Below, in pieces: positions 4,776 to 49,083 of a DNA stretch of 64,000 bases; the stretch's first letter is position 1, and each line of letters begins with the position of its first letter. The stretch spans positions 1-64,000 of the forward strand of contig CAWDOD010000003.1 of NCBI GenBank assembly GCA_963803805.1. The letters run 5' to 3'. Under the pieces are notes generated by a model that did no database searches, had not been told where the DNA came from, and was given only the letters and a program-made list of their open reading frames with translations. Origin of the DNA: an uncultured cyanobacterium. Lineage in GTDB: Bacteria; Cyanobacteriota; Cyanobacteriia; Cyanobacteriales; CAWCAG01. The position numbers and the translations under genes were made by a program.

Positions 4776-4925
4776 GCCAAGCACTTCCGCAAATTATTTC
4801 TTATACTTTTATGATGATAGAGTAATTTTATAAGTAGGTGGGTCGTTAGCTACATATCAATTATCTAATTTCTCGTTGAACTTGACTCACCATGAAAAGC
4901 CCATTACTCATTAGCTCAATATTTT

Positions 4926-5417
4926 TTGTTCTTTTTCCTTTGCGCTACATCAGTAGCACAAGCGCAATGGAAGCTATCTACACAGTTAGGAGGAGCCAAT
5001 TTTCTGGGTGCAACCCTTAATGTAGGTTACGAATATAACTTAGCAAGTAAAATACCAAGTAGCTTAGAAGCACAAGTAGGCTATGGTTTCTTGCTTCCGT
5101 CCCATGGACCAAATACAATCATTAACACACAACTTAAATACAAATTAAAGCAGTATGGCTTGGGCTTGGAGGCGGCCTTCTTCCATAAAAAACCTTTTTA
5201 TAAAGAAGGTTTTGACCAATCCGATTTTCTTGACTTATTGCTCTATCCTAACTTCAGCTATACCCTGCCGGTATTAAAGTCATTTTTTATAAATTTTTCA
5301 GCCGGATGTTATTTAGCTTTTAGCAGGGAAAGCATTGACTATTTTACTGAAGGTAAATTGGTTTTTGAAGGCGATCCTATCCCCGGGGCAGGTCTTACCT
5401 TCGGCTATATATTTTAA
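4926..5417 (+). CDS. Hypothetical secreted/outer-membrane beta-strand protein
   Basis: Signal-peptide-like start and C-terminal GLTFGYIF. An upstream ATG at 4892 is out of frame by one base across a T-run, so the true start is uncertain. Confidence 0.55.
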   Translation: MFFFLCATSVAQAQWKLSTQLGGANFLGATLNVGYEYNLASKIPSSLEAQVGYGFLLPSHGPNTIINTQLKYKLKQYGLGLEAAFFHKKPFYKEGFDQSDFLDLLLYPNFSYTLPVLKSFFINFSAGCYLAFSRESIDYFTEGKLVFEGDPIPGAGLTFGYIF

Positions 5418-5549
5418 AGAAAGGGCTTTCATGTACAATTCTGCAAGCCATTACACATTTGAAATTTTGATTTTATCTTTTCGATTTACCTGAGTGCTTA
5501 ATTTCAGTTACTCTGAGCGTGACATTATTGCAGAACTGCAAACGGCCAC

Positions 5550-6962
5550 CTACTTGGCTTCAGTAGGATAAATAAAAACCGAAGTAGGCACGGCAGTTTC
5601 TTTAATTGCTTTGATGCCGCCAGCCACTTCTACGAAGTTGTGGTATCCTCTGGATTTTAAGATGGACGCACTAATCATGGAGCGGTAGCCACTTTGGCAA
5701 TGGATATGATAGGTTGTGTCTTGCTCGAGCTGAGCCATTTGCTCACTGATAAAATCAAGCGGCAAATTCTGAGCCTGCTCTACATGCTCTGCTTCAAACT
5801 CTGACGGTTTCCGCACATCTACCACCTTCAAATCTTTTTCATGATAGACTTTGGCAAAGTCTGTTGCAGGAATGGAAGTAACATTATCAGTCTGCTTGCC
5901 TGCTGCTTTCCAAGCTTCAAGTCCTCCATCCAAATATCCTAAGGTGTTGTCATACCCCACGCGCGATAAGCGGGTTACTACTTCCTCTTCTCTTCCGGCA
6001 TCCGCCACAAAAATAATCGGTTGCTGCAGGTCAGGAATCAAAGCGCCCACCCAGGGTGCAAAACCGCCATCGATGCCAATAAAAATAGCATTAGGAATAT
6101 GAGCTGCTGCGAAATCTTTTTGGTTGCGTGTATCTAGCACCAGTGCACCTTCATGATTGGCATAAGCCTCAAAAGCCTTTGGCGATAGTGCCACCTTACC
6201 GGTAGCTAAAACCTTTTCTAATCCTGCTGTATGAGCCGATTTATTCATGGCTACATTTGCGGCAAAGTATTGAGGAGGAGGAAGCAAACCATCCGTAAGT
6301 TCCTTTATAAACTCTTCTTTGCTCATGTCCGCCCGCAGCGCATAATTAGTTTTTTTCTGATTGCCGAGCAAATCGGTAGTCTCTTTGCTCATGTTTTTGC
6401 CACAAGCAGAACCTGCACCATGAGCCGGGTAAACTACTACATCATCGGGTAACGTCATTATTTTTGAGCGCAGGCTTTCGTACAACATTCCGGCTAAATC
6501 TTCCTGTGTAACATCACCCTTCTGTGCCAAATCAGGGCGGCCAACATCGCCAATAAAAAGTGTATCACCACTAAAAATAGCTTGTTCTTTCCCTGCTTCA
6601 TCTAACAATAAATAAGTGGTGCTTTCCATGGTGTGTCCCGGTGTATGCAAAGCTTTTATTGTAATTTTACCGATGGAAAAAGTTTCGCCATCTGATGCTA
6701 TATGACTAATAAATTCCGTTTTAGCGGTGGGACCATAAACAATGGTAGCGCCAGTTTTTTTGGCTAAGTCCACATGGCCGGAGACAAAATCGGCATGAAA
6801 ATGCGTTTCAAAAATGTATTTAATGGTGGCATTTCTCTTCTTAGCCCTATCCAAATAAGGCTTGCTCTCGCGTAAAGGGTCAATAATAACGGCTTCTCCC
6901 TCGCTTTCAACATAATAAGCCCCTTGTGCAAGGCAACCGGTGTATATTTGCTCTATATGCAT
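5550..6962 (-). CDS. MBL-fold metallo-hydrolase with tandem rhodanese domains (persulfide dioxygenase-like)
   Basis: THFHADFVSGH, HTPGHT and GDTLFIGDVGRPDL motifs; C-terminal rhodanese HCQSGYRS. Confidence 0.9.
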   Translation of the reverse strand: MHIEQIYTGCLAQGAYYVESEGEAVIIDPLRESKPYLDRAKKRNATIKYIFETHFHADFVSGHVDLAKKTGATIVYGPTAKTEFISHIASDGETFSIGKITIKALHTPGHTMESTTYLLLDEAGKEQAIFSGDTLFIGDVGRPDLAQKGDVTQEDLAGMLYESLRSKIMTLPDDVVVYPAHGAGSACGKNMSKETTDLLGNQKKTNYALRADMSKEEFIKELTDGLLPPPQYFAANVAMNKSAHTAGLEKVLATGKVALSPKAFEAYANHEGALVLDTRNQKDFAAAHIPNAIFIGIDGGFAPWVGALIPDLQQPIIFVADAGREEEVVTRLSRVGYDNTLGYLDGGLEAWKAAGKQTDNVTSIPATDFAKVYHEKDLKVVDVRKPSEFEAEHVEQAQNLPLDFISEQMAQLEQDTTYHIHCQSGYRSMISASILKSRGYHNFVEVAGGIKAIKETAVPTSVFIYPTEAK

Positions 6963-7045
6963 TGTTTTAAATTTATTTTTAACAAAGCTAAAAATCCCTG
7001 AAAAGTTTTGGCAGTAAAATACTAGAATTTACTAGGCAGTCAATT

Positions 7046-7570
7046 TTAAAAACGGATAAACTCGATAGCTTGCTCCGTTAACAATTCATTATACAGCGCA
7101 TCGGTTATTTCTTCTCCATCAAAATTAGCTTCAATATTGGCCAACTTAGGTTTTAGCGCCAGCACATGCATGCCCAAATAATTGAAAATATCCGTCATGT
7201 GGCTCAATGCCAAGCCACCGCCCTGCACCCCTGATGAAATCCCAACCAACGCGCACTTTTTGCCTTTAAAACTATTCGGGTATTCCAGCCCATCTATAAA
7301 TGCCTTTAGCACCCCGGGGAAAGAACCGTTGTATTCCGGTATTATAAATACGAACTTATCGGAAGCCGTAACTTGTTCCCTAAAAGGATTGAATTGCACA
7401 TTTTTACCCGAGTTTTCATACAAAGCCGTAGCAACAAAATCAGCCGGTAACTGTGCCAAATCAATAATAGCAACTTCTTGGCCTTCTGCCTTCAGAAGAT
7501 CGGCATAGAGAGAGGCTACTTGCGAGGAAACTGAATTTTTACGGTTGGTGCCGGCAATAATTGAGATCAT
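7046..7570 (-). CDS. NAD(P)H-dependent FMN reductase
   Basis: GTNRKNS and PEYNGSFPGVLKAFID flavodoxin-like motifs. Confidence 0.88.
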   Translation of the reverse strand: MISIIAGTNRKNSVSSQVASLYADLLKAEGQEVAIIDLAQLPADFVATALYENSGKNVQFNPFREQVTASDKFVFIIPEYNGSFPGVLKAFIDGLEYPNSFKGKKCALVGISSGVQGGGLALSHMTDIFNYLGMHVLALKPKLANIEANFDGEEITDALYNELLTEQAIEFIRF

Positions 7571-7638
7571 GCTTAGATTTTTTCTAAAACAAAAATAGGG
7601 ACTAATAGTCCCTATCTCATCATGTATTATAAATTTTA

Positions 7639-8229
7639 TTACTTGGTAGAAAGCAATAGGTCGATTTTAAAATCATCGTAAATCATTTTGTCTCCTAAAC
7701 CATCGAAAAATGAGCCTGAACCGTATCTGATATCCCATTTGGTTCTGTCTAGGTCAAATTTAGCCGTAGCATTTACTTTGCTACCCACCATACTTACCGC
7801 AGCCGGGAAAGTAATTTTATTGGTTTTACCTTTAATAGTTAAGTCTCCGGCAATAAAATGTGTGGCACCTTCTTGCTTACTCTCGTTTACGGAAGTGATT
7901 TTGAAAGTAGCTGTTGGATGCTTCTCCACACTAAAGAAATCATCGGAACGTAAATGACCCATCAATTTACCTTTAGTGTCTCCACTTAAATCCTGCACAT
8001 CAATGGTAGTCATGTCAATAACAAAATTGCCTCCCGTAATTTGATCGCCATCAACTTCCAGTCCGCCCGATTTAATTTTGACCACGCCATTGTGCTCACC
8101 GGTAACTTTTTCGCCAACCCATTCTATTTTGCTGGCATCCGTATCAATGGCTAGCTCCTTTTTTATTACTGTAAATGCTGAAAGCAATACTGCAATACTT
8201 AATCCGATTGTAAAAATTGATTTTCTCAT
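7639..8229 (-). CDS. YceI family lipid/polyisoprenoid-binding protein
   Basis: Likely start MRKSIF (ATG at 8229) with signal peptide; HLRSDDFF, GDLTIKG and DRTKWDI motifs. Confidence 0.88.
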   Translation of the reverse strand: MRKSIFTIGLSIAVLLSAFTVIKKELAIDTDASKIEWVGEKVTGEHNGVVKIKSGGLEVDGDQITGGNFVIDMTTIDVQDLSGDTKGKLMGHLRSDDFFSVEKHPTATFKITSVNESKQEGATHFIAGDLTIKGKTNKITFPAAVSMVGSKVNATAKFDLDRTKWDIRYGSGSFFDGLGDKMIYDDFKIDLLLSTK

Positions 8230-8370
8230 GTTTTTATATTTAATGTTTAAATTATATGTACCTACATCTAATTTTGATGTAAACTTAATTTTTGTTGTTA
8301 GGTTGCAAAAATTTACTAAAAGTTTTTGCACTCCTGTATAATACACTGAAATTGGTCTAAAGTTTAAAAT

Positions 8371-9192
8371 ATGCATATTAGTTTATCACAGATACAAGAA
8401 GCAGTAGCTTATATACAATCAGAAACAGCCTTTAAACCCGAAGTAGGCATCATACTAGGCACAGGCTTGGGCGCACTCGTGCATGATATTGAGGTAGAGG
8501 CCGCTATCAGTTATGATGACATACCTAACTTCCCTATCTCCACTGTGGAAACGCATTCAGGCAAATTAATATTTGGCACATTAAGCGGTAAAAATGTAGT
8601 GGCCATGCAAGGTCGCTTCCATTATTACGAGGGCTACAGCATGGAGCAGGTAATTATGCCGGTGCGTGTTATGAAACTCTTAGGCATTGAGAAGCTATTT
8701 ATTTCTAATGCGGCAGGCGGGCTGAATGAGTCTTTTCAAACCAGCGATTTGATGGTTGTTGAAGACCACATCGACTTATTCCCAGAAAATCCGCTAAGAG
8801 GGGAGAACATGGATATTTTTGGTGGCCGCTTCCCTGATATGTGGCAAGCTTATGACCACAAATTGATAGCTTTAGCAAAAACGGTGGCCAAAGAACAAGG
8901 AATTGATTTAAAGCAAGGAGTTTACGCAGGAGTTACCGGGCCTAATTTGGAAACCCCTGCGGAGTATCGTTACCTCTCAACCATTGGTGCCGATGCTGTT
9001 GGTATGAGTACCATTCCGGAGACCATTGCCGCACGCCATATGGGTATGCCTGTATTTGCCGTTTCGGTAATTACCGATTTATGCTATCCCGGCAAACTAA
9101 AGCAGGTATCCATCCCTGAAATAATTAGTGCTGCCATGCGCGCTGAGCCTAAAATGACGGCCATATTTAAAGGATTGTTGGTGAAAATGTAG
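8371..9192 (+). CDS. punA: Purine-nucleoside phosphorylase
   Basis: GIILGTGLG, MQGRFHYYEGY, GPNLETPAE and GADAVGMST motifs. Confidence 0.92.
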   Translation: MHISLSQIQEAVAYIQSETAFKPEVGIILGTGLGALVHDIEVEAAISYDDIPNFPISTVETHSGKLIFGTLSGKNVVAMQGRFHYYEGYSMEQVIMPVRVMKLLGIEKLFISNAAGGLNESFQTSDLMVVEDHIDLFPENPLRGENMDIFGGRFPDMWQAYDHKLIALAKTVAKEQGIDLKQGVYAGVTGPNLETPAEYRYLSTIGADAVGMSTIPETIAARHMGMPVFAVSVITDLCYPGKLKQVSIPEIISAAMRAEPKMTAIFKGLLVKM

Positions 9193-9500
9193 ATTTTTAC
9201 GTGATGAGTAAGAAATGGATGGTTTTAAAATATGCCGAATGAGGCCTGAAAGCAAATGGCTTAAGAATGGTGGTAAATCATTGTTAACATTTTTTATACT
9301 GTTAGTTCCTAATTTTTCCTCCCCACTTTCTTACACCTTTTTCTTGAATCTTATATGAATGTCGTTTAGATAAGACCTTAACTCCTTCTGTTGAGGAGAA
9401 GGATTAGAGATGAGGTCATGAATACAAGCTTAACTAAATGACATTGAATCTTATATTTAAAAAATCGATTCGTTAAGCTAATTTCCATCAGTTCAATATG

Positions 9501-9887
9501 TTATTTTAAAAACTCACTACCCATGTAATCTTGCCAACGTACTAAGGTAAATTTTGCGATTCCTTTCGGGTCGGTAAAGGCTAAAAAGCCATATTCGTAG
9601 CAAAATAAGTACACCTGCCCTTGCTTATTTTTCCAGTAGTGTGTAAAAAATAAGGGGTTAAAGCCATCGGTCATGAGCGCTTCTTTCCTAATAGTTGCTT
9701 TCCCCGCCTTGTTGTAGTTTTTAAGAATTCTGCGATTAATTTTTAACTGCTTATCTATATTTCTGTACAAGCTGCTTTCTTTCTGCTTATTGCGCTCATA
9801 GTGGTAGTTTGATTTACAATAGGCTGTGCAAAATTTCTTCCCCAGCCTACCTATTATTTCTTCCCCACAATTAGGACATGGCTTCAT
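9501..9887 (-). CDS. Zn-ribbon hypothetical protein, divergent from the recombinase
   Basis: CPNC...KKFCTAYC zinc ligands, NRRILK and YLFCYEYGF. Confidence 0.7.
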   Translation of the reverse strand: MKPCPNCGEEIIGRLGKKFCTAYCKSNYHYERNKQKESSLYRNIDKQLKINRRILKNYNKAGKATIRKEALMTDGFNPLFFTHYWKNKQGQVYLFCYEYGFLAFTDPKGIAKFTLVRWQDYMGSEFLK

Positions 9888-9987
9888 TAGTGTAGATTTT
9901 GACGTTTATTATACGTTTAAATCTACGTTTAATTTTGTCTATATCACAGATTATTTGGTTGTTTATTTCCTCATAATAAATTAACTA

Positions 9988-11121
9988 ATGGAAAAGCTAC
10001 AGAAAATGATCAGCCTACGGCATCTGGAGGTAAATGGCAAGCGGATGATCGGCCTCAAATTTTATCCTGATAAGGTGATACAGGCCTTGGTAAAAACGCT
10101 ACCCACACCCAAATGGCATAAGCAATATCAGATGGCCTACATTAGCAATAACAAGTTGAATTACGCACAATTGTTGAATACATTTAAAGGAGTGGCCTGG
10201 CTAGATATGCGCTACTTCAGCAAGAAAGGCTGGATGGGTTGTGATGACCCTAGTCTGGTGATTGAGGCATTCAAAAAACGAGAAGTAACGGCTGGCTATA
10301 TAAGATGCCCGGAAAGCTTTCTGGATGAGTTAGAACAACGGAAATATGCAGTTAATACGGTGAGGGTCTATGTAAATTGCTTTGAGAAATTTATCAATTT
10401 TTACCCAAAGACACCTACTGAACACTTAGCCGAAGCTGAAATAAAGGTATTTATACAGAATTTAATAAAAAACAAAGCAAGTGAATCCTACATCAACCAA
10501 CACATAAATGCGATAAAATTCTATTTTGAAATTGTACATAAAATGCCCAATAGGTTCTACGACTTTCCAAGACCACTTAAAGCTGAAAAACTACCGGAAG
10601 TTCTGAGCAAAAAAGAAGTATTGAAGATGATTGACATCACTTTCAACCTAAAACACCAGTGCATTATTAGCACGTTATATTCAGCCGGCCTGAGAAGGAG
10701 CGAGCTTATTGCGCTCAAGATTACAGATATAGATAGCCAGCGAATGATTATTAAGGTAAGAGGTGCAAAGGGAAATAAAGACCGACTCAGTTTATTAAGT
10801 GAACGCTTACTTTTAAAGCTCAGGCTATATTTTAGGAATTACAAGCCCCGGGTTTACTTATTTGAAGGCTTTCCGGGAGAAGTTTACAGCGCTACCAGTG
10901 TGAGCAATATTGTTAAAAAAGCTGCAAAAAAAGCGTGTATCCCTAAAAATGTTACTCCGCATACATTGCGACATTCTTTTGCCACGCATTTACTGGAGAG
11001 TGGAACGGATTTACGCTATATACAAACCCTACTCGGCCACAATAGTAGTAAAACCACAGAAATTTATACCCATGTGGCCACAAATGTTTTCAAAGAAATA
11101 AATAATCCGTTAGATTGCTAA
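9988..11121 (+). CDS. Tyrosine recombinase with N-terminal SAM-like domain; candidate cassette integrase
   Basis: Full catalytic set: YSAGLRRSE (R), KGNKDR (K), HTLRHSFATH (HxxR), LLGH and TTEIYTHV (Y). It lies immediately upstream of the cassette array. Confidence 0.92.
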   Translation: MEKLQKMISLRHLEVNGKRMIGLKFYPDKVIQALVKTLPTPKWHKQYQMAYISNNKLNYAQLLNTFKGVAWLDMRYFSKKGWMGCDDPSLVIEAFKKREVTAGYIRCPESFLDELEQRKYAVNTVRVYVNCFEKFINFYPKTPTEHLAEAEIKVFIQNLIKNKASESYINQHINAIKFYFEIVHKMPNRFYDFPRPLKAEKLPEVLSKKEVLKMIDITFNLKHQCIISTLYSAGLRRSELIALKITDIDSQRMIIKVRGAKGNKDRLSLLSERLLLKLRLYFRNYKPRVYLFEGFPGEVYSATSVSNIVKKAAKKACIPKNVTPHTLRHSFATHLLESGTDLRYIQTLLGHNSSKTTEIYTHVATNVFKEINNPLDC

Positions 11122-11124
11122 AGA

Positions 11125-11174
11125 TACAGCGGAACTATCAACCACCAGTGGTTGATAGTCGGTTGTTGTACACC
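11125..11174 (+). other. Candidate primary (attI-like) recombination site
   Basis: Just after the recombinase stop: TACAGC-gga-ACTATCAACCAC-ca-GTGGTTGATAGT-cggtt-GTTGTACACC. This is a perfect 12-bp inverted repeat followed 5 nt later by the first GTT core (11165). Confidence 0.6.
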
Positions 11175-11192
11175 ATTTAAGAAAACGCAGAA

Positions 11193-11804
11193 TTGAATCA
11201 AGAAATAAAAATATCACGTTCGGACTTAATCGCAAAATGCGACCAATATCTGAATGGAGAAATTATAGAAAAGGATTTTGAAAATTATGCGTGGAATCTA
11301 ATAACCGAAGAACATATTGATTGGGACGATGATGTAATATCTGACATCATTTATCAATGGGACAGTCCAGAAATTAACTTTCCGATTACGAAACAAAACA
11401 TAATACTTTGGAAACATCAATTGGAAACTGATGAGGATTTATTGGCGGATTACAATATGTGGAACGCACATATCGACCGACAGAAAAAGATTTGTGAAAA
11501 GTTTGGTTCTAAATGGAATCCAATCAATAAAAAACTGAAAATCGGAGTGGGTTCTGATTTGAATGCCGACCCAATTCACGCATTGAGGCATCCAAAGGAA
11601 AAAGGAACTACAGGTTGGTACATTTGGACAGGAGAATATTCGGAATCTGATGATTTTTTCCAGCCAATGTGTGCTGAACATTTGCTTCAAATCCGACCTG
11701 AATTAATCAAATATTTCGGACTTGATGTTGGTTATCGATTTTTAATTGATAAAAACGAATACGAAGATGTTTGGTATGACGTAAATCTAAAAAATGTGGA
11801 ATAA
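11193..11804 (+). CDS. Cassette 1: Imm33-like immunity-domain protein
   Basis: C-terminal HALRHP..GTTGWYIWTGEYS..DFFQPMCAEHL resembles Imm33-type domains (recognised by eye). Confidence 0.55.
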   Translation: MNQEIKISRSDLIAKCDQYLNGEIIEKDFENYAWNLITEEHIDWDDDVISDIIYQWDSPEINFPITKQNIILWKHQLETDEDLLADYNMWNAHIDRQKKICEKFGSKWNPINKKLKIGVGSDLNADPIHALRHPKEKGTTGWYIWTGEYSESDDFFQPMCAEHLLQIRPELIKYFGLDVGYRFLIDKNEYEDVWYDVNLKNVE

Positions 11805-11808
11805 AAAC

Positions 11809-11871
11809 GGTGTACAACAAAGGGTATAGTGCATGCCCTGCGGGACACGCACCATACCCAAACCGTTAGCG
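11809..11871 (+). repeat. attC-like site 1
   Basis: GGTGTACAAC-aaa-GGGTATAGTGCATG...CACGCACCATACCC-aaacc-GTT. Confidence 0.85.
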
Positions 11872-12207
11872 GCAATACCTTAGTAATAAAGAAATTGGTT
11901 CATTGAAAATCTTGAATTGTAGGATTGACCTGATATTTGGTTTTGTCCTCTCAACCGAAGTACAGTTGGACTTCTCTTGGATTATAAACATGGTTCCATT
12001 TATAACAATTATGAATATGAAAAAAGTAGCAAGAACTCTGGAAATGGTTAAAACATTAATAGTTTTATGTGCAATTGGGGCAGGAACACTTCTGGGGAAG
12101 TCCAAGTACTTCGGTTGCAAGAGAATATTCCAAGCTCAACTTTCCTACAGAAATTCAAGAGTAAGTGTCGGGGGAGAAATCCCCCCTTCCCCACCAAATA
12201 TAATCTC

Positions 12208-13104
12208 ATGAAAAAATCTCCAATTGATGTCTTATTTTACGAGCTATTTGGTTTCTATCCTAATAAGGCTGGGAGTGCTTACGAAATTTTAACCGCTGCT
12301 GCTATAAGAATAATTACTGGTGAAGAAGTGGAATTAGACCAGCGAGTTATGGGCAACTATAGTGATACAATTTATCAAGTGGACGGGGTAACGAAGAGCC
12401 AGTCACACGAATCGATGATTGAGGCTAAAGACTATACAATTCAGAATAAGAAAGTCGGACGAGGAGACATTCAAAAATTGCAGGGAGCATTGAGCGATTT
12501 GCGTTTTAAAGAAGGATTATTTACTTCGGCTACTGACTTTACAAAACCAGCAAAGAAATATGCTGAATCTTCCTTTCTCAATCCTAGTCAAAAACCAGTA
12601 CAATTATATCAGATAAGACCCTCTACCGAGGAAGATGAAAAAGGGCGAATCAAAAAATTTGAGATCACAATGGTTATGGTTCTTCCAAATTTTGAAAAAG
12701 CTAAGTACAAATATGCTTGGACAGAAGAGGCAGTTGAAAAATTCAAAAAGAATGGATTAGCAAACAAACAAATTTCAATTAAGGTCGAGACTCTTTACGA
12801 GGATAATGGAAGTTTTGCCACTAGTATTCAAGATTTCACACATGATAACCAACCAATATTGATGGATATTGATGAAGAATTAGCTAAAGGTTGTTGGATC
12901 TTTCGAGGGCTTTGTATTAAGCATGAAAACGAATATTATGGACTAAAGGGAATTGATTACGAAATCCCTTATTATCGCTTTTCAAGTACGTTTACAATAG
13001 AATCAGAAGGGAAGCCTAAAATATACGTGGCATCTGAAAATGGAGATGTAAACAAACTTATTACGGATAAACAGCTAAGAGAAATGATACGAATCAAAAA
13101 ATAA
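12208..13104 (+). CDS. Cassette 2: Mrr-like PD-(D/E)xK restriction endonuclease domain protein
   Basis: YE...QVDG...IEAKDY motif. Likely ATG at 12208 (MKKSPIDV), after a ~340 bp leader. Confidence 0.7.
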   Translation: MKKSPIDVLFYELFGFYPNKAGSAYEILTAAAIRIITGEEVELDQRVMGNYSDTIYQVDGVTKSQSHESMIEAKDYTIQNKKVGRGDIQKLQGALSDLRFKEGLFTSATDFTKPAKKYAESSFLNPSQKPVQLYQIRPSTEEDEKGRIKKFEITMVMVLPNFEKAKYKYAWTEEAVEKFKKNGLANKQISIKVETLYEDNGSFATSIQDFTHDNQPILMDIDEELAKGCWIFRGLCIKHENEYYGLKGIDYEIPYYRFSSTFTIESEGKPKIYVASENGDVNKLITDKQLREMIRIKK

Positions 13105-13106
13105 AA

Positions 13107-13303
13107 GCCGCTAACATTCTGTATGAAATCATGGCTGGTCAGTGGTATACGGAACTTTAGCTCTTTGTAGAAAGCCCGTCAATCCGCAGGATTGACTTAG
13201 TGTATTGAGAAAAATTAGCAAGCCAATCCTGCGGATTGCCTAGTTAGTAACTTGAAACTTTTGTACTTTTAAATCAGCCACGCTTCATACAGTGGCGTTG
13301 GGC
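13107..13303 (+). repeat. attC-like site 2 (family B, ~195 bp)
   Basis: GCCGCTAAC-att-CTGTATGAAATCATGGCTG...CAGCCACGCTTCATACAG-tggc-GTT. Confidence 0.85.
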
Positions 13304-19999: not shown

Positions 20000-20133
20000 G
20001 ACACCTAACAATGTATATAAAAAATAGGCGAAACAGTAGTAAATCCAAAGATTTTAGCTCGTTTCTAACTTTTTGCTTAAATGAAAGTTTAGTGCTTCGA
20101 AATCGCCTACTTTTCATATACCAAACGTTAGCG
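20000..20133 (+). repeat. attC-like site 8 (family A)
   Basis: GACACCTAAC-aat-GTATATAAAAAATAGGCGA...TCGCCTACTTTTCATATAC-caaac-GTT. Confidence 0.85.
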
Positions 20134-21555
20134 GCAATACCTTAGTAATAAAGAAATTGGTTCATTGAAAATCTTGAATTGTAGGATTGACCTGATATTT
20201 GGTTTTGTCCTCTCAACCGAAGTACAGTTGGACTTCTCTTGGATTATAAACATGGTTCCATTTATAACAATTATGAATATGAAAAAAGTAGCAAGAACTC
20301 TGGAAATGGTTAAAACATTAATAGTTTTATGTGCAATTGGGCAGGAACACTTCTGGGGAAGTCCAAGTACTTCGGTTGCAAGAGAATATTCCAAGCTCAA
20401 CTTTCCTACAGAAATTCAAGAGTAAGTGTCGGGGGAGAAATCCCCCCTTCCCCACCAAATATAATCTCATGAAAAAATCTCCAATTGATGTCTTATTTTA
20501 CGAGCTATTTGGTTTCTATCCTAATAAGGCTGGGAGTGTTACGAAATTTTAACCGCTGCTGCTATAAGAATAATTACTGGTGAAGAAGTGGAATTAGACC
20601 AGCGAGTTATGGGCAACTATAGTGATACAATTTATCAAGTGGACGGGGTAACGAAGAGCCAGTCACACGAATCGATGATGAGGCTAAAGACGATACAATT
20701 CAGAATAAGAAAGTCGGACGAGGAGACATTCAAAAATTGCAGGGAGCATTGAGCGATTTGCGTTTTAAAGAAGGATTATTTACTTCGGCTACTGACTTTA
20801 CAAAACCAGCAAAGAAATATGCTGAATCTTCCTTTCTCAATCCTAGTCAAAAACCAGTACAATCATATCAGATAAGACCCTCTACCGAGGAAGATGAAAA
20901 AGGGCGAATCAAAAAATTTGAGATCACAACGGTTATGGTTCTTCCAAATTTTGAAAAAGCTAAGTACAAATATGCTTGGACAGAAGAGGCAGTTGAAAAA
21001 TTCAAAAAGAATGGATTAGCAAACAAACAAATTTCAATTAAGGTCGAGACTCTTTACGAGGATAATGGAAGTTTTGCCACGAGTATTCAAGATTTCACAC
21101 ATGATAACCAACCAATATTGATGGATATTGATGAAGAATTAGCTAAAGGTTGTTGGATCTTTCGAGGGCTTTGTATTAAGCATGAAAACGAATATTATGG
21201 ACTAAAGGGAATTGATTACGAAATCCCTTATTATCGCTTTTCAAGTACGTTTACAATAGAATCAGAAGGGAAGCCTAAAATATACGTGGCATCTGAAAAT
21301 GGAGATGTAAACAAACTTATTACGGATAAACAGCTAAGAGAAATGATACGAATCAAAAAATAAAAGCCGCTAACATTCTGTATGAAATCATGGCTGGTCA
21401 GTGGTATACGGAACTTTAGCTCTTTGTAGAAGCCCGTCAATCCGCAGGATTGACTTAGTGTATTGAGAAAAATTAGCAAGCCAATCCTGCGGATTGCCTA
21501 GTCAGTAACTCGAAACTTTTGTACTTTTAAATCAGCCACGCTTCATACAGTGGCG
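20127..21555 (+). pseudogene. Cassette 9: near-identical copy of cassette 2 (Mrr-like nuclease) with frameshifts, including att site 9 (21366-21561)
   Basis: Matches 11865-13297 from GTT to GTT; 1-nt deletions near 20538 and 20679 break the ORF. Confidence 0.9.
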
Positions 21556-21589
21556 TTGTAGTGCATTAAAAAAGAAACCTCAGTTAAGC

Positions 21590-42229: not shown

Positions 42230-44215
42230 ATGAAAAAAGTGTACCTCACAATTATAACCACTTTCTTAACGCTTGGAATTACTGCTCAAACTATTCAACA
42301 ACTCATAGATTCGGCAGCAACCTTTCCGCCTATGCCAAGGGGCACAGCAGATATGATTCCATTTGTTCAGGGCTTTCCAACTTTCGCTTCAGGAGCACCT
42401 TTCAACGATTTGGATTTTACACTTCTTGACACAGACTATATGGATGGCGAGAATAGTGGTGGAGATGTTTTTATGCCTGTTGACCCTTCAGACCAATTCC
42501 CAGGAGCCGATAAAGTAAAATATATCCGTTGCATTTTAAACACGGATTTAAATCAAGCCTATGGTAGTGCAGATATTGATAGAGTAATTCTTGGAACTCA
42601 CGAAATTAGCGTACCCTTTTTTTTACGTGGCGCTGACGGCATCGACAACGATTATGCTGTTATTCAGCACCTCGATTTTGAAGCGGGATATATTCAGCTT
42701 AAAGGTTCTGCCAATGACTACGATTTGGTATATTGTACTTTAGCTGATGGCTGCCAAACAGAAGGGTGGTATTTATTTTATACTGCCAATAACAGTATAG
42801 ACCTTATTGCATTCATCTATCCTTGCTGGGATATTGAACCTTCTGTAAGTGGTAATCCACCAAATAATCCCAACCCTATTTGTAACTCAGATAGTACCTT
42901 GAGCTTAACTAATCCTACTCATTTCAAATACGCCCAGCCCATTAACACGAATATCACTTTGACAAATGGGATTGCTCAATTTGGAAGCAATGGAAAAGAA
43001 GTCATTGGTGGAATGACAGTCGATAGCCAGGGCAATACATATTTATTTGGACTTACAGACGGCAACTTAGATGGGAATACTGATGCTGACAATGAAATCT
43101 TTGTCATCAAACTTGACATTAACGGAAACCGACAATGGGTGACAGAACTTCCAATGGCAGAAGGAACAATTTTGAAAGACGGAATTACAGACAATCAATT
43201 TTTGTATGTCTGTGGACGGACTTTGGGAAATTTGCCAGGCTTTACGAATGCAGGAAGATGGGACGGCATTATTTTAAAACTTGACCTCTCAAACGGACAA
43301 ATTATAGCGTCAGACCAATGGGGAAATGCAGGAATTGACGGTTATGGAAACATAGAACAAGACGATAACGGAAATATTTTTGTTTCAGCGCAAGGCTCGC
43401 CCGTTGGACAAGGCGGAACAGATGATGTGTATTTGGTTGCCAAACACAGCAAATCTGACCTATCCAACATTTGGCGTGAATTGAATGCACCGAACGCCAC
43501 AGGTTTTATTGCCTCTGCCGAAGCGTGGGGCGGTCTTACTTATGTTCCAAACCAAACCCCAGGTGATGGTAGGCTCATTGCTGGTGGTTGGTATTTTTCG
43601 AATTTAGGAGCTAATGCATTCGTTTCCGTATATGAAAATCTTAACTCTGCCAATCCTACTCGACCACATTCCGAAATAATCAATACACAAGGAATAAGAG
43701 CCGATTGGGTATTAGATAATGCGGTAGACAGTCAAGGAAATATATATGTAGCAGGTTTTACTACAGGCAATTTAGGTTCAACACCACTTGGCGAAGGAGA
43801 TGCCTATATTATCAAGTATTCCCCTCAACTGACAAATCCTGTTTATCTGCAATTTGGAACCAACAAATCAGACCTAATTAGGAAGTTGATTATTCAAAAT
43901 GACACACTCTACACTGTCGGCTACACTTATGGAAACTATATTGGGAATAATGCCGACCCAAATCTACTTTCAGGAGATGTATTTATTCAAAAGTTAGATG
44001 CTAACTTGAACCTTTTAAACGGAATTCAATTCGGAACACCACACGAAGACCGTGGCTTTGGTTATTTAAGAGATACGAATCTATGGATTGGCGGAATGAC
44101 CGAAGGCTATATGTCAGGAAACAATCTTGGTTCTTTTGACGGGTTTCTTGCTGCGGTAAATACGACAGACCTTTCATTGAATAACCGATTGAATAAGAAA
44201 ATTATAAAAGAATAA
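42230..44215 (+). CDS. Cassette 27: secreted beta-propeller (SBBP-repeat-like) protein
   Basis: Signal peptide; repeated VDSQGNxYxxGxTxGNL units. Confidence 0.75.
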   Translation: MKKVYLTIITTFLTLGITAQTIQQLIDSAATFPPMPRGTADMIPFVQGFPTFASGAPFNDLDFTLLDTDYMDGENSGGDVFMPVDPSDQFPGADKVKYIRCILNTDLNQAYGSADIDRVILGTHEISVPFFLRGADGIDNDYAVIQHLDFEAGYIQLKGSANDYDLVYCTLADGCQTEGWYLFYTANNSIDLIAFIYPCWDIEPSVSGNPPNNPNPICNSDSTLSLTNPTHFKYAQPINTNITLTNGIAQFGSNGKEVIGGMTVDSQGNTYLFGLTDGNLDGNTDADNEIFVIKLDINGNRQWVTELPMAEGTILKDGITDNQFLYVCGRTLGNLPGFTNAGRWDGIILKLDLSNGQIIASDQWGNAGIDGYGNIEQDDNGNIFVSAQGSPVGQGGTDDVYLVAKHSKSDLSNIWRELNAPNATGFIASAEAWGGLTYVPNQTPGDGRLIAGGWYFSNLGANAFVSVYENLNSANPTRPHSEIINTQGIRADWVLDNAVDSQGNIYVAGFTTGNLGSTPLGEGDAYIIKYSPQLTNPVYLQFGTNKSDLIRKLIIQNDTLYTVGYTYGNYIGNNADPNLLSGDVFIQKLDANLNLLNGIQFGTPHEDRGFGYLRDTNLWIGGMTEGYMSGNNLGSFDGFLAAVNTTDLSLNNRLNKKIIKE

Positions 44216-44529
44216 CTGTGCCCAACAACTAAGCATTCGTGTGGTCGGTACGACCCAACATAGCCTGTCCCGCAATTCGGGAAATGCAGTGTTGAGCGAA
44301 TCAGTAGCTTGCTAGAAGTGCTGCACCCTTATGGGTAAACCGAAATGATTGAGTTTAATGTCAGGGCTTAAAAGTGTTTACTTTTAAGCTGGAAGGAGTA
44401 GTCAAATCAAGTATTTTAAGGCTTTATCATATGACTTTTAATATTTTCATTGATTGAGGAGCTATTTTTTCCTCATTTTAGCACATTTTGAGCGTAGTTT
44501 TTCCATTACGCCCATTGCCGTTTCATTTT

Positions 44530-45669
44530 TTAGTGTCCTTTTAGTTTATTGAGCCAATGAAGAGGTGGTCCCCTTTGATCAAAGACTGCCACGGTTTGAA
44601 GTTTTCCTTTTTTGCAGGTTGGGCAGATGCCCAAGCAGGTAGCGATTGATTCAGCAATAATAATTTCAAGCTTACCTATTTGGCTCTCTATTATCGCCTT
44701 ACATGCTTTTTTACGGCTGCCCGATAAAATACCAAAATGCCTGATTCGAGTAACACCTTTTGGCAGGATATGCATGGCAAACCTTCTGATAAATTCCTTT
44801 GTCTTTAAAGTCACCACATGCTTTTTGCCACCTCTCCTGTACTCTTTGGCAGAGAAGCTGACCCCGTCCTTGTCCACATCGATCAGCCGGTGGTTGCTGA
44901 TGGCCACTTTATGGGTATACCTGCCTAGCCCCGATAGCTATCGGGGCCACTACTTGAGTAGGTCCATAAAATTGTTGCTTGCAATAGATCACCCAGTTCT
45001 TTTTAAACAACAGTTGGCCCTCCTGCTTGGTCAGCAGTTCTTCTTTTCTTAATGCGGCCACCATCTTTGCTCTAAATACTTTGCTCATGGCCTTTACAGG
45101 GAAAAGATATTTGCCCTTTCCCTTACCCTCTTTCCATTTTCCCGATCGGGTCAATCCCCCTGAAGGAATGATACAGTGAAGATGTGGGTGCAGGCTCAGG
45201 TTCTGCCCCCATGTATGGAGCACGGCAATCATGCCGTTGTGGGCGCCCATCAACTTGGGGTTAGCCGCAAAATCCTTTACCACTTGCCAAGCTGTTTTGA
45301 ACAATAGCGCATATAGCAATCCAGGCTGTTCCAAGGCCAAACCATTGAGGGTATCGGGCAGGGAAAACACCGTATGAAAATAGGAGGTGTTGAGTAAATC
45401 CTTTTCCCTTTCCTGCACCCACTTTTGCTGTAGGTGCCCTTGATCCCGATAGCTATCGGGAGGCAGTGCCTGTTGCGGCAGCTATTGTAGCTGAGGTGCA
45501 ATTTATTGCATTTAGGATTATCACAGCGATCAAGGTGACCTCCCATGGCAGACGTCCTGCATTTTGCCAATGCATACAGCGTCCTGCGCTTCCAGCTATT
45601 GCCGATAAGACTTGGCAGTTCATGTAGCTGTTGTTGCAGGATTTGCTGTACTTCAAAAGTGGGCTTCAT
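44530..45669 (-). pseudogene. IS91-family (Y2) transposase, broken into three frames
   Basis: CRT..MGGH, YNSCRNRHC, HTWGQNLSLHPHLH (HUH) and FIRRFAMHILPKG motifs. Confidence 0.85.
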
Positions 45670-46526
45670 GACCGGTAGAGTTTCTCTAAAGGAGAAAAAG
45701 GCAGTTGCCTGCCCACCCTTGCCACATGCAGGTAGCCCAAGGTGGTCTGGATGTCACCATGCCCGAGCAGATCTTTGAGGGTGATGATATCGGTGCCCAT
45801 TTCCAGCAGATGGGTGGCGTAGCTGTGACGAAGGGTATGGGCTGTGATTTGCTTCTTGATACCTGAGCGTTGCCTGGCTTCACGCATCACCCATTGCACT
45901 CCTCTGGTGGAAAGCCCGGTATATCCTCCTTCTTCATCGGATTGCCCGTTGAAAAGAAATTCAACAGGTTTTTCCGCTTCAAGATAGGTTTCAACGCCAC
46001 GGATCAGTAAGTCACAAAGCGGAACATAGCGGTCTTTCTTTCCTTTTCCCTCCCTCACATGGAGCTGTTTCCTGATTAAATCAAGATCAACAATTTTAAG
46101 CTTGCACAACTCGAAGTTCCTCAGCCCACAGCCATAGAGCAACGCCATCATTAATCGGTGCTTCAGTAGTTTTGGAGTCTTTAAAAGTAAGCGTACTTCT
46201 TGCTGACTTAATACAACGGGTAGTGCCTTCTGCCTTCCAATGGAGGGTAATATCACCCTGCTTTCTGTGCGGTCAAATATCCTGTAGAGGTAGCGAAGTC
46301 CGTAAACGGTGTGCTTGAAGAAGCTATCAGAAGGCGTCTTCCTTTTGGACTTTAACATGTGCAGATAATCCAGGATTTGCTCGTCATCCAGTTCCAGCAA
46401 ATCACATTGCAAGTGCAGACCCATATGTGCCAAACACCTCCCATAATTAGTGAGTGTGCTCTGGCTTTTGCCGGCAATATCAATACTTCTTCTTAGCCTT
46501 TTGTACTGTAGGCCGAAGCCTGGCAC
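45666..46526 (-). CDS. Tyrosine recombinase of the IS91-associated type
   Basis: YGCGLRNFE, KGKKDR, HTLRHSYATH, LLGH and TTLGYLH motifs. The natural ATG (46569) is out of frame across an A8 run. Confidence 0.88.
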   Translation of the reverse strand: MPGFGLQYKRLRRSIDIAGKSQSTLTNYGRCLAHMGLHLQCDLLELDDEQILDYLHMLKSKRKTPSDSFFKHTVYGLRYLYRIFDRTESRVILPSIGRQKALPVVLSQQEVRLLLKTPKLLKHRLMMALLYGCGLRNFELCKLKIVDLDLIRKQLHVREGKGKKDRYVPLCDLLIRGVETYLEAEKPVEFLFNGQSDEEGGYTGLSTRGVQWVMREARQRSGIKKQITAHTLRHSYATHLLEMGTDIITLKDLLGHGDIQTTLGYLHVARVGRQLPFSPLEKLYRS

Positions 46527-46655
46527 AGCTTGACAGGCTTTTTCAATTAGGGTATTACTTTTTTTTCATAACTTATAATTTAATGAATGAATACTCAACC
46601 TAAGTTACGGAAGTCTGAACAAATTGTCAGGCTTCCGCCCTTAGGCGGATTCGTT

Positions 46656-46782
46656 CAACAATGTATATAAAAAATAGGCGATTTAGTAATAAATTCAAGG
46701 TTTTTGCTCATATCAAACTTTGTGTTTAACCGAGAGTTCAGTGATTCGATATCGCCTACTTTTCATATACTAAACGTTAGCG
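46656..46782 (+). repeat. Right part of attC-like site 27 (family A)
   Basis: CAAC-aat-GTATATAAAAAATAGGCGA...TCGCCTACTTTTCATATAC-taaac-GTT. Confidence 0.85.
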
Positions 46783-46833
46783 GTAATGCAAAAAACACTC
46801 TACAAGAAAACAAAAATTCTAAAATAGAAAGAA

Positions 46834-47322
46834 ATGACAGAGTTAGAAGACAAATTTGAAATTTACGAATTGGCGTATAAGTTTGCTGATGCGGCCAATC
46901 GAAAAGACGGAAAAATGTTTCAATCCCTTTGGGCAGACGAAGGTGCTGAATGGATTATTGGAAAACCCATAAATAAAGAATTTAAAGGAAAAGAAAATAT
47001 GGGTGGGTATGTAACGCAAATGCTCGGGCTTTGGGAATTTTTTGTGCAGATGGTTACTGGCGGAGTTGTAATACTAAAAGGAAATGAGGCATATGCACGT
47101 TTTTATGTTCAAGAAATTGCAAATGGAAAGAATGAAACAGGGAACCATAACCTGAGTATGTACGAGGACGAATTGATAAAAAATGATGGTCTTTGGTACT
47201 TTAAAAAAAGAACATATCATACCATATTTCAATCAACGGAAAGACAAAAGGGAGAAGTTATACAAGTTCCAGATTTACCAGAATGGAGTAAAGAAAAATC
47301 GTTGAACACTAGAGCACAATAG
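46834..47322 (+). CDS. Cassette 28: SnoaL/NTF2-like protein
   Basis: IYELAYKFADAAN...YEDELIK..GLWYFKKR pattern. Confidence 0.75.
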   Translation: MTELEDKFEIYELAYKFADAANRKDGKMFQSLWADEGAEWIIGKPINKEFKGKENMGGYVTQMLGLWEFFVQMVTGGVVILKGNEAYARFYVQEIANGKNETGNHNLSMYEDELIKNDGLWYFKKRTYHTIFQSTERQKGEVIQVPDLPEWSKEKSLNTRAQ

Positions 47323-47348
47323 TCAATATAAACAAAAATTCTAAAAAT

Positions 47349-48068
47349 ATGAAAAAAGTTATTCATAAAGCAGAAACGAGAGGACACGCAAATCACGGCT
47401 GGTTAGACAGTTATCACACTTTTAGTTTTGCAAATTATCACAATCTTGAGCGAATGAATTTTGGTGTTTTAAGAGTTTTAAATGACGACACCGTATCTGG
47501 AGGAATGGGATTTGGGAAACATCCACATAGAGATATGGAAATAATAAGCATACCGCTTGAAGGAACTCTAAAACACGAAGATAGTATGGGTACGAAAAGT
47601 ATCATTGAAAGCGGTGATGTTCAAGTAATGAGTGCTGGTACAGGAGTAACACACAGCGAAAAAAATGCAAGTCAAACTGAAACCGTAAAATTTCTACAAA
47701 TATGGATTATTCCGAAAAAGTTGGGATTGGAACCACGCTATGGTGAAATCAACTTATCTGATGGTGCAAAACCCAACGATTTTCAACAGATAGTTTCACC
47801 CAATAAAGACGATGCCGGAACTTGGATTAATCAAGATGCTTGGCTCAACCTTGCTAATTTCGACAAAGGAACCACCAAAGAGTATTGTATTCAAAAGAAC
47901 ACAAATGGCATCTATGTTTTCATAATTGAGGGTAAGGCAAAAATAAATAATCAATTATTGGAAAAGCGTGACGGTTTAGGCATTTCAGAAACACAATCTT
48001 TCAAAGTTGAGGCGATAGAAAATTCACAGATACTTTTAATTGAAGTACCTATGGAATTGCCCGAATAA
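47349..48068 (+). CDS. Cassette 28: pirin family protein
   Basis: HGWLDSYHTFSF, HPHRDMEI and MSAGTGVTHSE motifs. Confidence 0.9.
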   Translation: MKKVIHKAETRGHANHGWLDSYHTFSFANYHNLERMNFGVLRVLNDDTVSGGMGFGKHPHRDMEIISIPLEGTLKHEDSMGTKSIIESGDVQVMSAGTGVTHSEKNASQTETVKFLQIWIIPKKLGLEPRYGEINLSDGAKPNDFQQIVSPNKDDAGTWINQDAWLNLANFDKGTTKEYCIQKNTNGIYVFIIEGKAKINNQLLEKRDGLGISETQSFKVEAIENSQILLIEVPMELPE

Positions 48069-49018: not shown

Positions 49019-49083
49019 ATGGTTAAAATTGACATCGAAAATAACGGTAAGAAAGGTCGTTTTGCAATTTACGAAGATGATAT
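49019..49083 (+). pseudogene. Truncated start of a YjdJ-like small GNAT at the sequence junction
   Basis: MVKIDIENNGKKGRFAIYEDD resembles the N-terminus of small Bacteroidota GNATs; similarity appears to end here. Confidence 0.45.

Follow-up and report, generated by a model that had tools for sequence, protein, structure and literature searches.

What kind of mobile element splits a recombination site in an array of gene cassettes, reading against the cassettes around it, and by what route did it enter? The question is raised by a stretch of 64,000 nucleotides (positions 1 to 64,000 of contig CAWDOD010000003.1, assembly GCA_963803805.1; hereafter 'the window') from an uncultured cyanobacterium of the order Cyanobacteriales, in which an element of about 2.4 kb interrupts a site resembling the attC sites of integron cassettes. 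As set out below, this element is probably a decayed two-gene insertion sequence (IS) of the IS91 family, in which a tyrosine recombinase is coupled to a Y2 HUH rolling-circle transposase, and whose lineage homes to the R'' box of attC.

Results

An antisense element interrupts an attC-like site

The insert occupies 44224-46656 (2,433 bp), with its genes on the minus strand, and in its own sense runs from GAACGAATCC to GCTTAGTTGTT; these bounds derive from comparison with its relatives (loci L004 and L005, the copies in Saccharicrinis, and a tandem junction at locus L009). The interrupted site belongs to a repeat family of the window (D1, ∼141 nt, seven copies), characterized by RYYYAAC on the left, GTT on the right and strong internal complementarity. 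RYYYAAC and GTT boxes are those of the classical attC consensus. What remains to the left of the element is a stub on the plus strand (44217-44223), the end of an R'' box (...TGTGCCC), whose sequence, ACTGTGCCC, aligns with the start of the intact family member at 15858; the remainder of the site, AACAATGTATAT...AAACGTTAGCGG (46657-46787, plus strand), aligns with the intact family. When a profile built from six intact members was searched with nhmmer, the remainder matched from profile position 18 onward (18-154, at 46652-46787; E 2.4e-34), the alignment starting five bases inside the element.

The initial annotation had described a 2.4-kb, relatively GC-rich antisense element splitting such a site, and had stated that its removal restores a normal one. 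Both statements hold: GC content is 0.457 in the element versus 0.352 in the array (11800-44223), and the empty site reconstructed in silico from stub and remainder matches the profile over positions 5-154 with 120.6 bits (E 1.1e-38), intact members scoring 142-154 bits. The annotation's pair of genes, a recombinase and an IS91-like transposase, is upheld by domain matches, but the transposase lies in three pieces, so that this copy cannot be moved by its own transposase.

In its own sense, the element comprises a structured left end, an ATG followed by a run of eight adenines (A8), the tyrosine recombinase gene, an ATGA overlap, the pieces of the transposase gene tnpA, and a noncoding right end of ∼300 nt. 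The recombinase open reading frame (ORF; 45666-46526, minus strand), annotated using Pfam and NCBIfam, encodes 286 amino acids (aa) from a GTG codon, with coding signal extending upstream to the A8 run, and matches Phage_integrase (1e-33) and Phage_int_SAM_4 (6.8e-06). Its stop overlaps the start of the first tnpA fragment (45277-45669, minus strand), which carries the Zn_Tnp_IS91 domain; the second (44909-45418, minus strand) holds the HUH region (Y2_Tnp profile positions 1-108), and the third (44530-44907, minus strand) the C-terminal part (Y2_Tnp 118-181). The respective Pfam values for the IS91-type domains on the three fragments are 4.9e-12, 6.1e-24 and 1.4e-18. The second fragment also scores 186.9 bits against transpos_IS91 (NCBIfam NF033538; cut-off 125), which identifies the product as a Y2 HUH transposase of the IS91 family, and has a sub-threshold match to MobA_MobL (16.9 bits, cut-off 26.7).

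Two other kinds of element that insert into attC could be set aside on gene content. The domains found (Phage_integrase, Zn_Tnp_IS91 and Y2_Tnp) include no DEDD transposase of the IS110/IS1111 type, as an IS1111-attC element would require, and a group IIC-attC intron is rejected by the lack of a reverse-transcriptase domain among the element proteins and of any Rfam family near threshold in 43500-47500.

Relatives share a rule of insertion

The element is present in a single copy in its own genome, and no true DNA copy was found in 100 related genomes, two of which gave weak partial matches (81-109 nt, 72-73% identity). Relatives were sought through the recombinase, by a scan of one genome per species that yielded 275 confirmed stretches, from which 79 distinct loci were kept (numbered with the prefix L); an IS91-type transposase lies directly downstream in 36 of these and is absent in 34, the remaining nine leaving no room for one. 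The closest relatives, L004 and L005, come from metagenome-assembled genomes (MAGs) of Bacteroidota, one of them labelled Marivirga, with 90% protein identity and with DNA identity to the window element of 79% (L004) and 77% (L005) over ∼2.45 kb. A second lineage, in Saccharicrinis (58% protein identity), numbers at least 17 near-identical copies, each at a site of its own, spread over three genomes; six of these loci fall within ∼56 kb of one chromosome, all in a single orientation.

Aligned in their own sense, these elements obey a common rule: a flank ending in (T)GTT, an element running from GAAC to TTAGTT(G/A)TT, and a flank beginning with RRRY. Across the close and Saccharicrinis lineages, TGTT precedes 23 of 24 left ends, the 24th being the inner junction of a head-to-tail tandem at L009, where ...TTAGTTATT is followed by GAAC. 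The element terminus is TTAGTTGTT in the window group and TTAGTTATT in Saccharicrinis, and a purine opens 19 of 20 right flanks. The apparent repeats on the two sides are unequal (TGTTG and TGTTA in both L004 and L005; TGTT and TATT in 17 Saccharicrinis copies); there is therefore no target duplication, the left TGTT being target and the right T(G/A)TT belonging to the element, an assignment that the tandem junction makes for TGTT directly. Lack of target-site duplication is a property of the IS91 family, as is a short target beside one end with a similar tetranucleotide at the other, here TGTT and T(G/A)TT (on the other strand, the gene-upstream end finishes in GTTC); the target sequence itself differs from the GTTC/CTTG of that family.

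The hexamer CAACAA does occur at both junctions (44223-44228 and 46656-46661), as the initial annotation had noted. AACAA at 44224-44228 is the element's own end, and the proposal that the hexamer is a shared core of the recombinase type fails on the relatives, in which the flanking repeats differ (L004, L005 and the Saccharicrinis copies).

The same end rule applies to one plasmid copy in Arenibacter and two in Myroides. Four copies from Planctomycetota have YGTT followed by GAAC on the left, and three of these share a right end of ...GGTT followed by RRRY. Copies of a distant relative in a Planctomycetota MAG (L041 and L042) lie in tandem heptamer repeats (ATTAGCC and CTAAGAG), with the YGTT/GAAC junction kept. 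On the Myroides odoratimimus plasmid p63039 (L232), two units of recombinase plus IS91-type transposase alternate with aadS cassettes beside two beta-lactamase genes, all of them antisense to the units, which is the arrangement of the window array.

Most insertions fall at one nucleotide of an attC-type hairpin

At 21 sites, the complement of the 34 nt at the insertion point was sought in the 450 nt upstream and compared with 200 shuffles, using the 95th percentile as threshold. An attC-type complementary arm exceeded this threshold at 13 sites, in most cases at a distance of 113-131 nt (176-183 nt in L007, L014, L020 and L025). L015 ties with the percentile, and its constrained fold is a canonical RYYYAAC...GTTRRRY hairpin (-26.2 kcal/mol); L027 falls below it, yet its flank matches the window attC profile (E 4.3e-20) from profile position 18, as in the window, and the flank of L018 matches from the same position (E 0.0025). 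About 15 of the 21 insertions thus lie at one nucleotide of an attC-type hairpin, with the element always antisense to the cassettes. In attC terms, the cut lies in the R'' box, as RYYY/AAC on the top strand or GTT/RRRY on the bottom strand; letters common to element and target leave the position of the cross-over free to shift by as many as two or three bases. Constrained fold energy was also used to rank each insertion site against every GTT position, but did not discriminate, because other attC hairpins abound in these loci.

The suggestion that the element parasitizes att sites, and that homologous elements, once tabulated, would prove enriched there, is thereby supported for the lineage: insertions are non-random, TGTT precedes nearly every left end, and attC arms recur at the same R'' position and in one orientation.

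Could the association with attC be accidental, an ordinary IS91-type insertion at a short tetranucleotide that attC happens to contain? IS91-family elements require only a tetranucleotide, according to the available portion of one account (PMC13181058), and six of the 21 sites (L008, L013, L017, L019, L021 and L024) have no clear attC partner. Yet GTT occurs every ∼64 nt, while some 15 of 21 insertions chose a GTT/RRRY that closes an attC hairpin, in one orientation, and attC makes up a very small share of any genome; coincidence is the least credible of the explanations considered.

Scarcely more credible is a passive gene cassette, caught once by the array recombinase and lacking targeting of its own. 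Such a cassette would account for the attC-like site at the element's 3' end (described below) and for its location in an attC-like site of an array that has a recombinase (9988-11121). It would not, however, be expected to lie antisense in the R'' box, as the element does, rather than at the R' cross-over where cassettes join, and despite the attC-like 3' hairpin the element is accordingly not an integron gene cassette by these features; nor would it be expected in the many near-identical Saccharicrinis copies at differing sites, on plasmids, or in Planctomycetota outside evident arrays.

The joined ends can form an attC-like hairpin

The left, gene-upstream end (46586-46656, minus strand) consists of GAACGAATCC and a hairpin (CCGCC-CTTA-GGCGG, 46635-46648), so that the other strand reads hairpin-ATTCGTTC up to the boundary. 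The right end, downstream of tnpA (44224-44305, minus strand), comprises the terminal TTAGTTGTT, a hairpin (GGTCG-GTA-CGACC, 44243-44255), inner stems and an internal GCTCAAC box. Both hairpins had been spotted in the initial annotation, and both are kept in relatives. The one at the right end shows compensatory changes and forms the tip of a conserved structure: when nine right ends, drawn from five lineages, were folded to a consensus, 10 of the 14 predicted pairs proved to be preserved although both partners had changed. An alignment of nine left ends reveals invariant A1, A2, C3, A5, A6, C8 and C9. Subterminal palindromes are thus present at both ends, and the ends are not inverted copies of one another, as is characteristic of the IS91 family.

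An internal box, GG(A/T)TTC.GT(T)CAAC, located ∼55-60 nt from the right terminus, can pair with a stretch made up of the element's final three bases and the first ten of its left end (GTT/GAAC(G/T)AA(A/T)CC), and one of these pairs has been exchanged in a compensatory way (A-T/T-A) between the window group and Saccharicrinis. Circle junctions assembled in silico fold into a single long imperfect hairpin, with z between -2.4 and -7.3 in seven of eight elements (-0.35 in the element from Planctomycetota); the natural tandem junction of L009 gives z -2.06. At the base of this hairpin stand a GTTCAAC box resembling RYYYAAC and a GTT/GAAC box resembling GTTRRRY, and bulged bases occur on one arm. 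The joined ends can therefore fold into an attC-like imperfect hairpin whose stems covary.

Which enzyme cuts, and which strand moves?

In the available portion of the account cited above (PMC13181058), IS91, IS801 and IS1294 are described as producing no target duplication and as inserting with oriIS adjacent to a target tetranucleotide; terIS is the end upstream of tnpA and has, beside its cleavage site (GTTC in IS801 and IS1294), a subterminal palindrome, and only a single-stranded circle of the bottom strand integrates. The gene-upstream end of the present element, read as hairpin-ATTCGTTC on the antisense strand, fits terIS.

By analogy, we lean towards a mechanism in which the HUH transposase cuts RYYY/AAC at the foot of a hairpin, both in the element's own junction and in a single-stranded attC top strand. 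As in IS91, the transposase would peel the strand antisense to the genes away as a single-stranded circle, with a hairpin and GTTC closing its gene-upstream end, like terIS of IS801 and IS1294. The hairpin of the ter-ori junction, with GTTC/AAC at its stem base, would then be the substrate that the transposase cuts, and a resident single-stranded attC top strand, offering the same RYYY/AAC at its own stem base, would be the place where the element is pasted. The recombinase would be an accessory, serving for example in tandem resolution, target capture or as an aid to excision.

A second mechanism, which we regard as possible though doubtful, assigns integration to the element's own IntI/Xer-like recombinase, the HUH transposase supplying only a single-stranded or replicated circle. 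The joined ends would then constitute an attC-like site (R''-like GTTCAAC and R'-like G/TTGAAC), one strand of which would be exchanged with the resident R'' box, a GTTRRRY core when read on the other strand; the element would in effect be a self-mobilising gene cassette inserted backwards. The junction GTT/GAAC does fit GTTRRRY, the internal GTTCAAC box pairs with the junction, and the cross-over, being ambiguous over (G/A)/T/T, allows G/TT. As in a cassette, the genes come first and a hairpin site follows at the 3' end, and all lineages examined have kept the recombinase gene in coupling with tnpA. The recombinase, moreover, scores 166.9 bits against the integron-integrase model TIGR02249 and is 37% identical to the array recombinase over 205 residues. 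The match, however, is made in two stretches, bypasses the central part of the profile and lies below the cut-off of 265 bits, and the extra domain specific to IntI is absent; the protein thus falls outside IntI, with no large gap relative to the array recombinase, itself below the cut-off. In addition, the Saccharicrinis junction reads ATTGAAC rather than GTT, and the junction letters never mix (TGTT on the left, TATT on the right), so that a cut at a single point suffices with no overlap region. Head-to-tail tandems and a lack of duplication are, in the same partial account, classic features of rolling-circle transposition (PMC13181058).

Several observations count against the preferred reading, a rolling-circle IS that homes to attC through its transposase. 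On the sense strand, the gene-upstream end is invariably preceded on its 5' side by TGTT, and the opposite end closes with a tetranucleotide identical or almost identical to it; TGTT and T(G/A)TT fit better the rule that the target equals the ter tetranucleotide, and under this rule the origin would lie at the gene-upstream end, opposite to its place in IS91. The 5' target tetranucleotide of the antisense strand conforms only loosely to RYYY, and is not GTTC. The agreement of the junction GTT/GAAC with the integron core GTTRRRY, and the IntI/Xer-like character of the recombinase, favour integration by the recombinase instead. Beyond the six sites without a clear attC partner, 12 of the 36 recombinase-transposase loci, mainly in Clostridium, lack a (G/A)TTGAAC left junction (the Clostridium flanks differ), and the Planctomycetota insertions are in heptamer repeats, not in evident attC. 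Neither an empty-site allele nor a circle was seen, a result that weighs neither way: the upstream cassette (42230-44228) could not be matched in G001 or G002, the nearest two genomes, and no public sequencing run contains the stretch (best word share 0.17), four runs yielding only contigs of related elements, none of which joins across the element.

It is also conceivable, if we would not put it more strongly, that the two mechanisms are combined in a self-propelled 'mirror-image cassette': a single-stranded circle made by the HUH enzyme, with joined ends that mimic attC, would be recombined with the top-strand fold of attC, either by the IntI-like recombinase or by the HUH enzyme. The top-strand fold is that of the strand not used by integron integrases. 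If this were true, rolling-circle transposition and single-strand recombination of the integron type would be joined in one element, and the recombinase ORF of two-gene IS91 members would have a role.

A conserved A8 run precedes the recombinase

Ten of the 11 elements checked share a leader in which A8 follows an ATG whose frame is not that of the long recombinase ORF. In the window, this leader occupies 46559-46569 on the minus strand (ATG at 46567-46569, A8 at 46559-46566), and the ORF is in the +1 frame relative to the ATG. The offset is 1 in seven elements (the window, L004, L005, L021, L006, the Arenibacter copy and L016) and 2 in three (the Myroides copy, L007 and L014); the run is absent in the element from Planctomycetota. 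The ten elements include L231 and L232, and the arrangement, a candidate for programmed slippage, is conserved over lineages that reach as low as 46% protein identity. The changes that separate the window, L004 and L005 ahead of the GTG codon are of the synonymous kind, and the coding region therefore reaches the A8 run. Two Saccharicrinis variants retain A8 yet require opposite shifts. The pattern suggests that slippage on A8, whether transcriptional or ribosomal, is a conserved throttle on the recombinase.

The window copy has been disabled by hairpin mini-inserts

Alignment to the intact transposase of L004 and to L005 reveals how the window copy decayed. Intact transposases comprise 371 aa in L004, which has the same ATGA overlap with the recombinase, and 374 aa in L007. 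In the window, one 18-nt palindrome, TCCCGATAGCTATCGGGA (45444-45461), replaces ∼7-8 nt, the P-K-C codons of NRHCPKCQG in L004 (net gain 11 nt), and a second, CCCCGATAGCTATCGGGG (44929-44946), takes the place of ∼5 nt in the E-Y-L codons that precede GRYTHK in L004 (net gain 13 nt). The motifs hit are what we take to be the zinc-binding and catalytic-tyrosine motifs of IS91 transposases. Exactly at the first palindrome, 11 nt are missing from a related metagenome contig (X1, record 4) that spans 45207-46448. A 21-nt hairpin mini-insert (44262-44282, net gain 20 nt), absent from L004 and L005 in a three-way alignment, disrupts the right-end structure, and it is at 44261 that the loose ends of metagenome contigs diverge. 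Together, the two palindromes and the 21-nt insert have wrecked both the transposase gene and the right-end structure, and the window copy is dead and immobile, a fossil. Its value lies in documenting a further independent insertion and in its record of three strikes by hairpin mini-inserts.

The ∼20-nt hairpin insert (TCCCGA....CGGGACAGGYT) of the window right end is also found, in the opposite orientation, in tnpA of L005, and is missing from the other close copies; a similar sequence adjoins the palindrome in metagenome contig L122. The palindrome, (T/C)CCCGATAGCTATCGGG(A/G), has only two occurrences in the 5.3-Mb genome, each within the transposase gene described here. It is present in none of 400 other genomes of the host's order, which rejects a small dispersed repeat of cyanobacteria. 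Its 16-nt core was recovered from at least 127 metagenome stretches, preceded by T in 66 of 84 and followed by A in 69 of 84. In five genomes of Bacteroidota that carry relatives of the IS (G401-G405), exact and one-mismatch occurrences number 11 and 5 in G402, 1 and 1 in G401, 1 and 0 in G404, and 0 and 2 in G405, with none in G403; in ten loci from the four genomes that contain it, the palindrome is mostly intergenic, and in G401 and G402 it lies inside a longer repeat. Mobilization as a repetitive extragenic palindrome (REP) by a Y1 enzyme of the REP-associated tyrosine transposase (RAYT) type was considered and rejected, since the palindrome lies within 1.5 kb of none of seven Y1 loci in G401, G402 and G404. 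For hairpins like the ∼20-nt insert, too, the seven loci checked revealed no Y1 (RAYT-like) gene as near as 1.5 kb. Neither the 16-mer nor a 14-mer was found in the literature text searched.

The array and its surroundings resemble Bacteroidota DNA

The genome is cyanobacterial, with four Photo_RC matches, one of them on the window contig, and from 49083 onward the window is syntenic with, and 92-94% identical to, a sister genome (G001). No match to 3000-11200 was found in that genome. A metallo-beta-lactamase (MBL)-rhodanese gene at 5550-6962 encodes a product with 75% and 73% identity to proteins of the Bacteroidota MAGs bearing L005 and L004, respectively, versus 31% over a part in G001, and the array recombinase is 61% and 60% identical to proteins of the L005 and L004 MAGs. 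An ORF is interrupted by the break at 49082/49083, and contig C9 ends in 884 nt that are the same as C3:49083-49966. The first 49 kb, including the array, its recombinase and neighbouring metabolic genes, are thus Bacteroidota-like, and would represent either a very recent island or part of a chimeric, possibly misassembled contig, with array and element belonging to a Bacteroidota companion. Elsewhere in the assembly, contig C11 likewise ends in sequence that matches the interior of C2.

The array is headed by a recombinase (9988-11121, plus strand, 377 aa) that has the orientation of the cassettes and a ∼100-residue N-terminal extension. This protein scores 196.1 bits, in two stretches, against the integron-integrase cut-off of 265, and the array is accordingly not a classical integron but an integron-like one. 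Within the array, a stretch of 1.45 kb, containing a cassette together with its site, is duplicated at 11854-13300 and 20118-21558 (99% identity).

Discussion

Among known systems, the element most resembles the IS91 family (IS91, IS801, IS1294 and IS1294b), with which it has in common a Y2 HUH transposase preceded by an N-terminal zinc domain. The available portion of one description extends this likeness to the lack of target duplication and of terminal inverted repeats, subterminal palindromes at both ends, a palindrome plus GTTC on the antisense strand of the gene-upstream end, an upstream ORF whose stop overlaps the start of tnpA, and tandem copies (PMC13181058). The differences are that the upstream ORF encodes a tyrosine recombinase rather than Orf121, that the target is RYYY/AAC at the base of an attC hairpin rather than a free GTTC/CTTG, and that the joined ends are attC-like.

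The gene pair itself is not without precedent. ISfinder presumably lists several two-gene IS91 members with an upstream integrase ORF. ISWz1 of Weeksellaceae, annotated as 'tyrosine-type recombinase/integrase' plus 'IS91 family transposase', has the same two genes in the same order, and copies of this two-gene kind on Myroides plasmids, whose recombinase is 46% identical to that of the window element, follow the same end rule and sit between resistance cassettes. Multiple copies of ISWz1 are reported from resistance regions of integrative and conjugative elements (ICEs), where the available parts of the papers treat them as modules of recombination or mobilization and state no target rule (PMC11322121, PMC10973501).

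With an integron cassette, the element shares a circular form that would bear a 3' hairpin with RYYYAAC...GTTRRRY boxes and bulged bases, as well as a recombinase of the IntI/Xer kind. Unlike a cassette, it measures ∼2.4 kb, encodes two enzymes of its own, and lies backwards at R'', and its recombinase lacks the IntI-specific domain.

Full-text literature searches, with subscription journals and supplements outside their scope, turned up no attC target rule for elements of the IS91 type. To our knowledge, IS1111-attC elements and group IIC-attC introns are the only elements known to home to attC. The window element is like these in outcome and unrelated in machinery: IS1111-attC employs a DEDD transposase with a guide RNA, and the group IIC-attC intron a ribozyme with a reverse transcriptase, neither of which is present here. 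Insertion of both into attC is site- and orientation-specific, as described in the available parts of PMC11187229 and PMC3001079.

If its homing is as we propose, the element would add a marker for integron-like arrays in Bacteroidota, and a possible purpose for the extra recombinase gene in many annotations of the 'IS91 family'. It would also bear on the reshuffling of resistance cassettes on plasmids and ICEs of Flavobacteriia, because the Myroides copies sit between aadS cassettes. Alongside the DEDD elements and the introns, an IS91-type transposase joined to an IntI-like recombinase, in an element with a cassette-like hairpin end, would constitute a third kind of attC-homing element.

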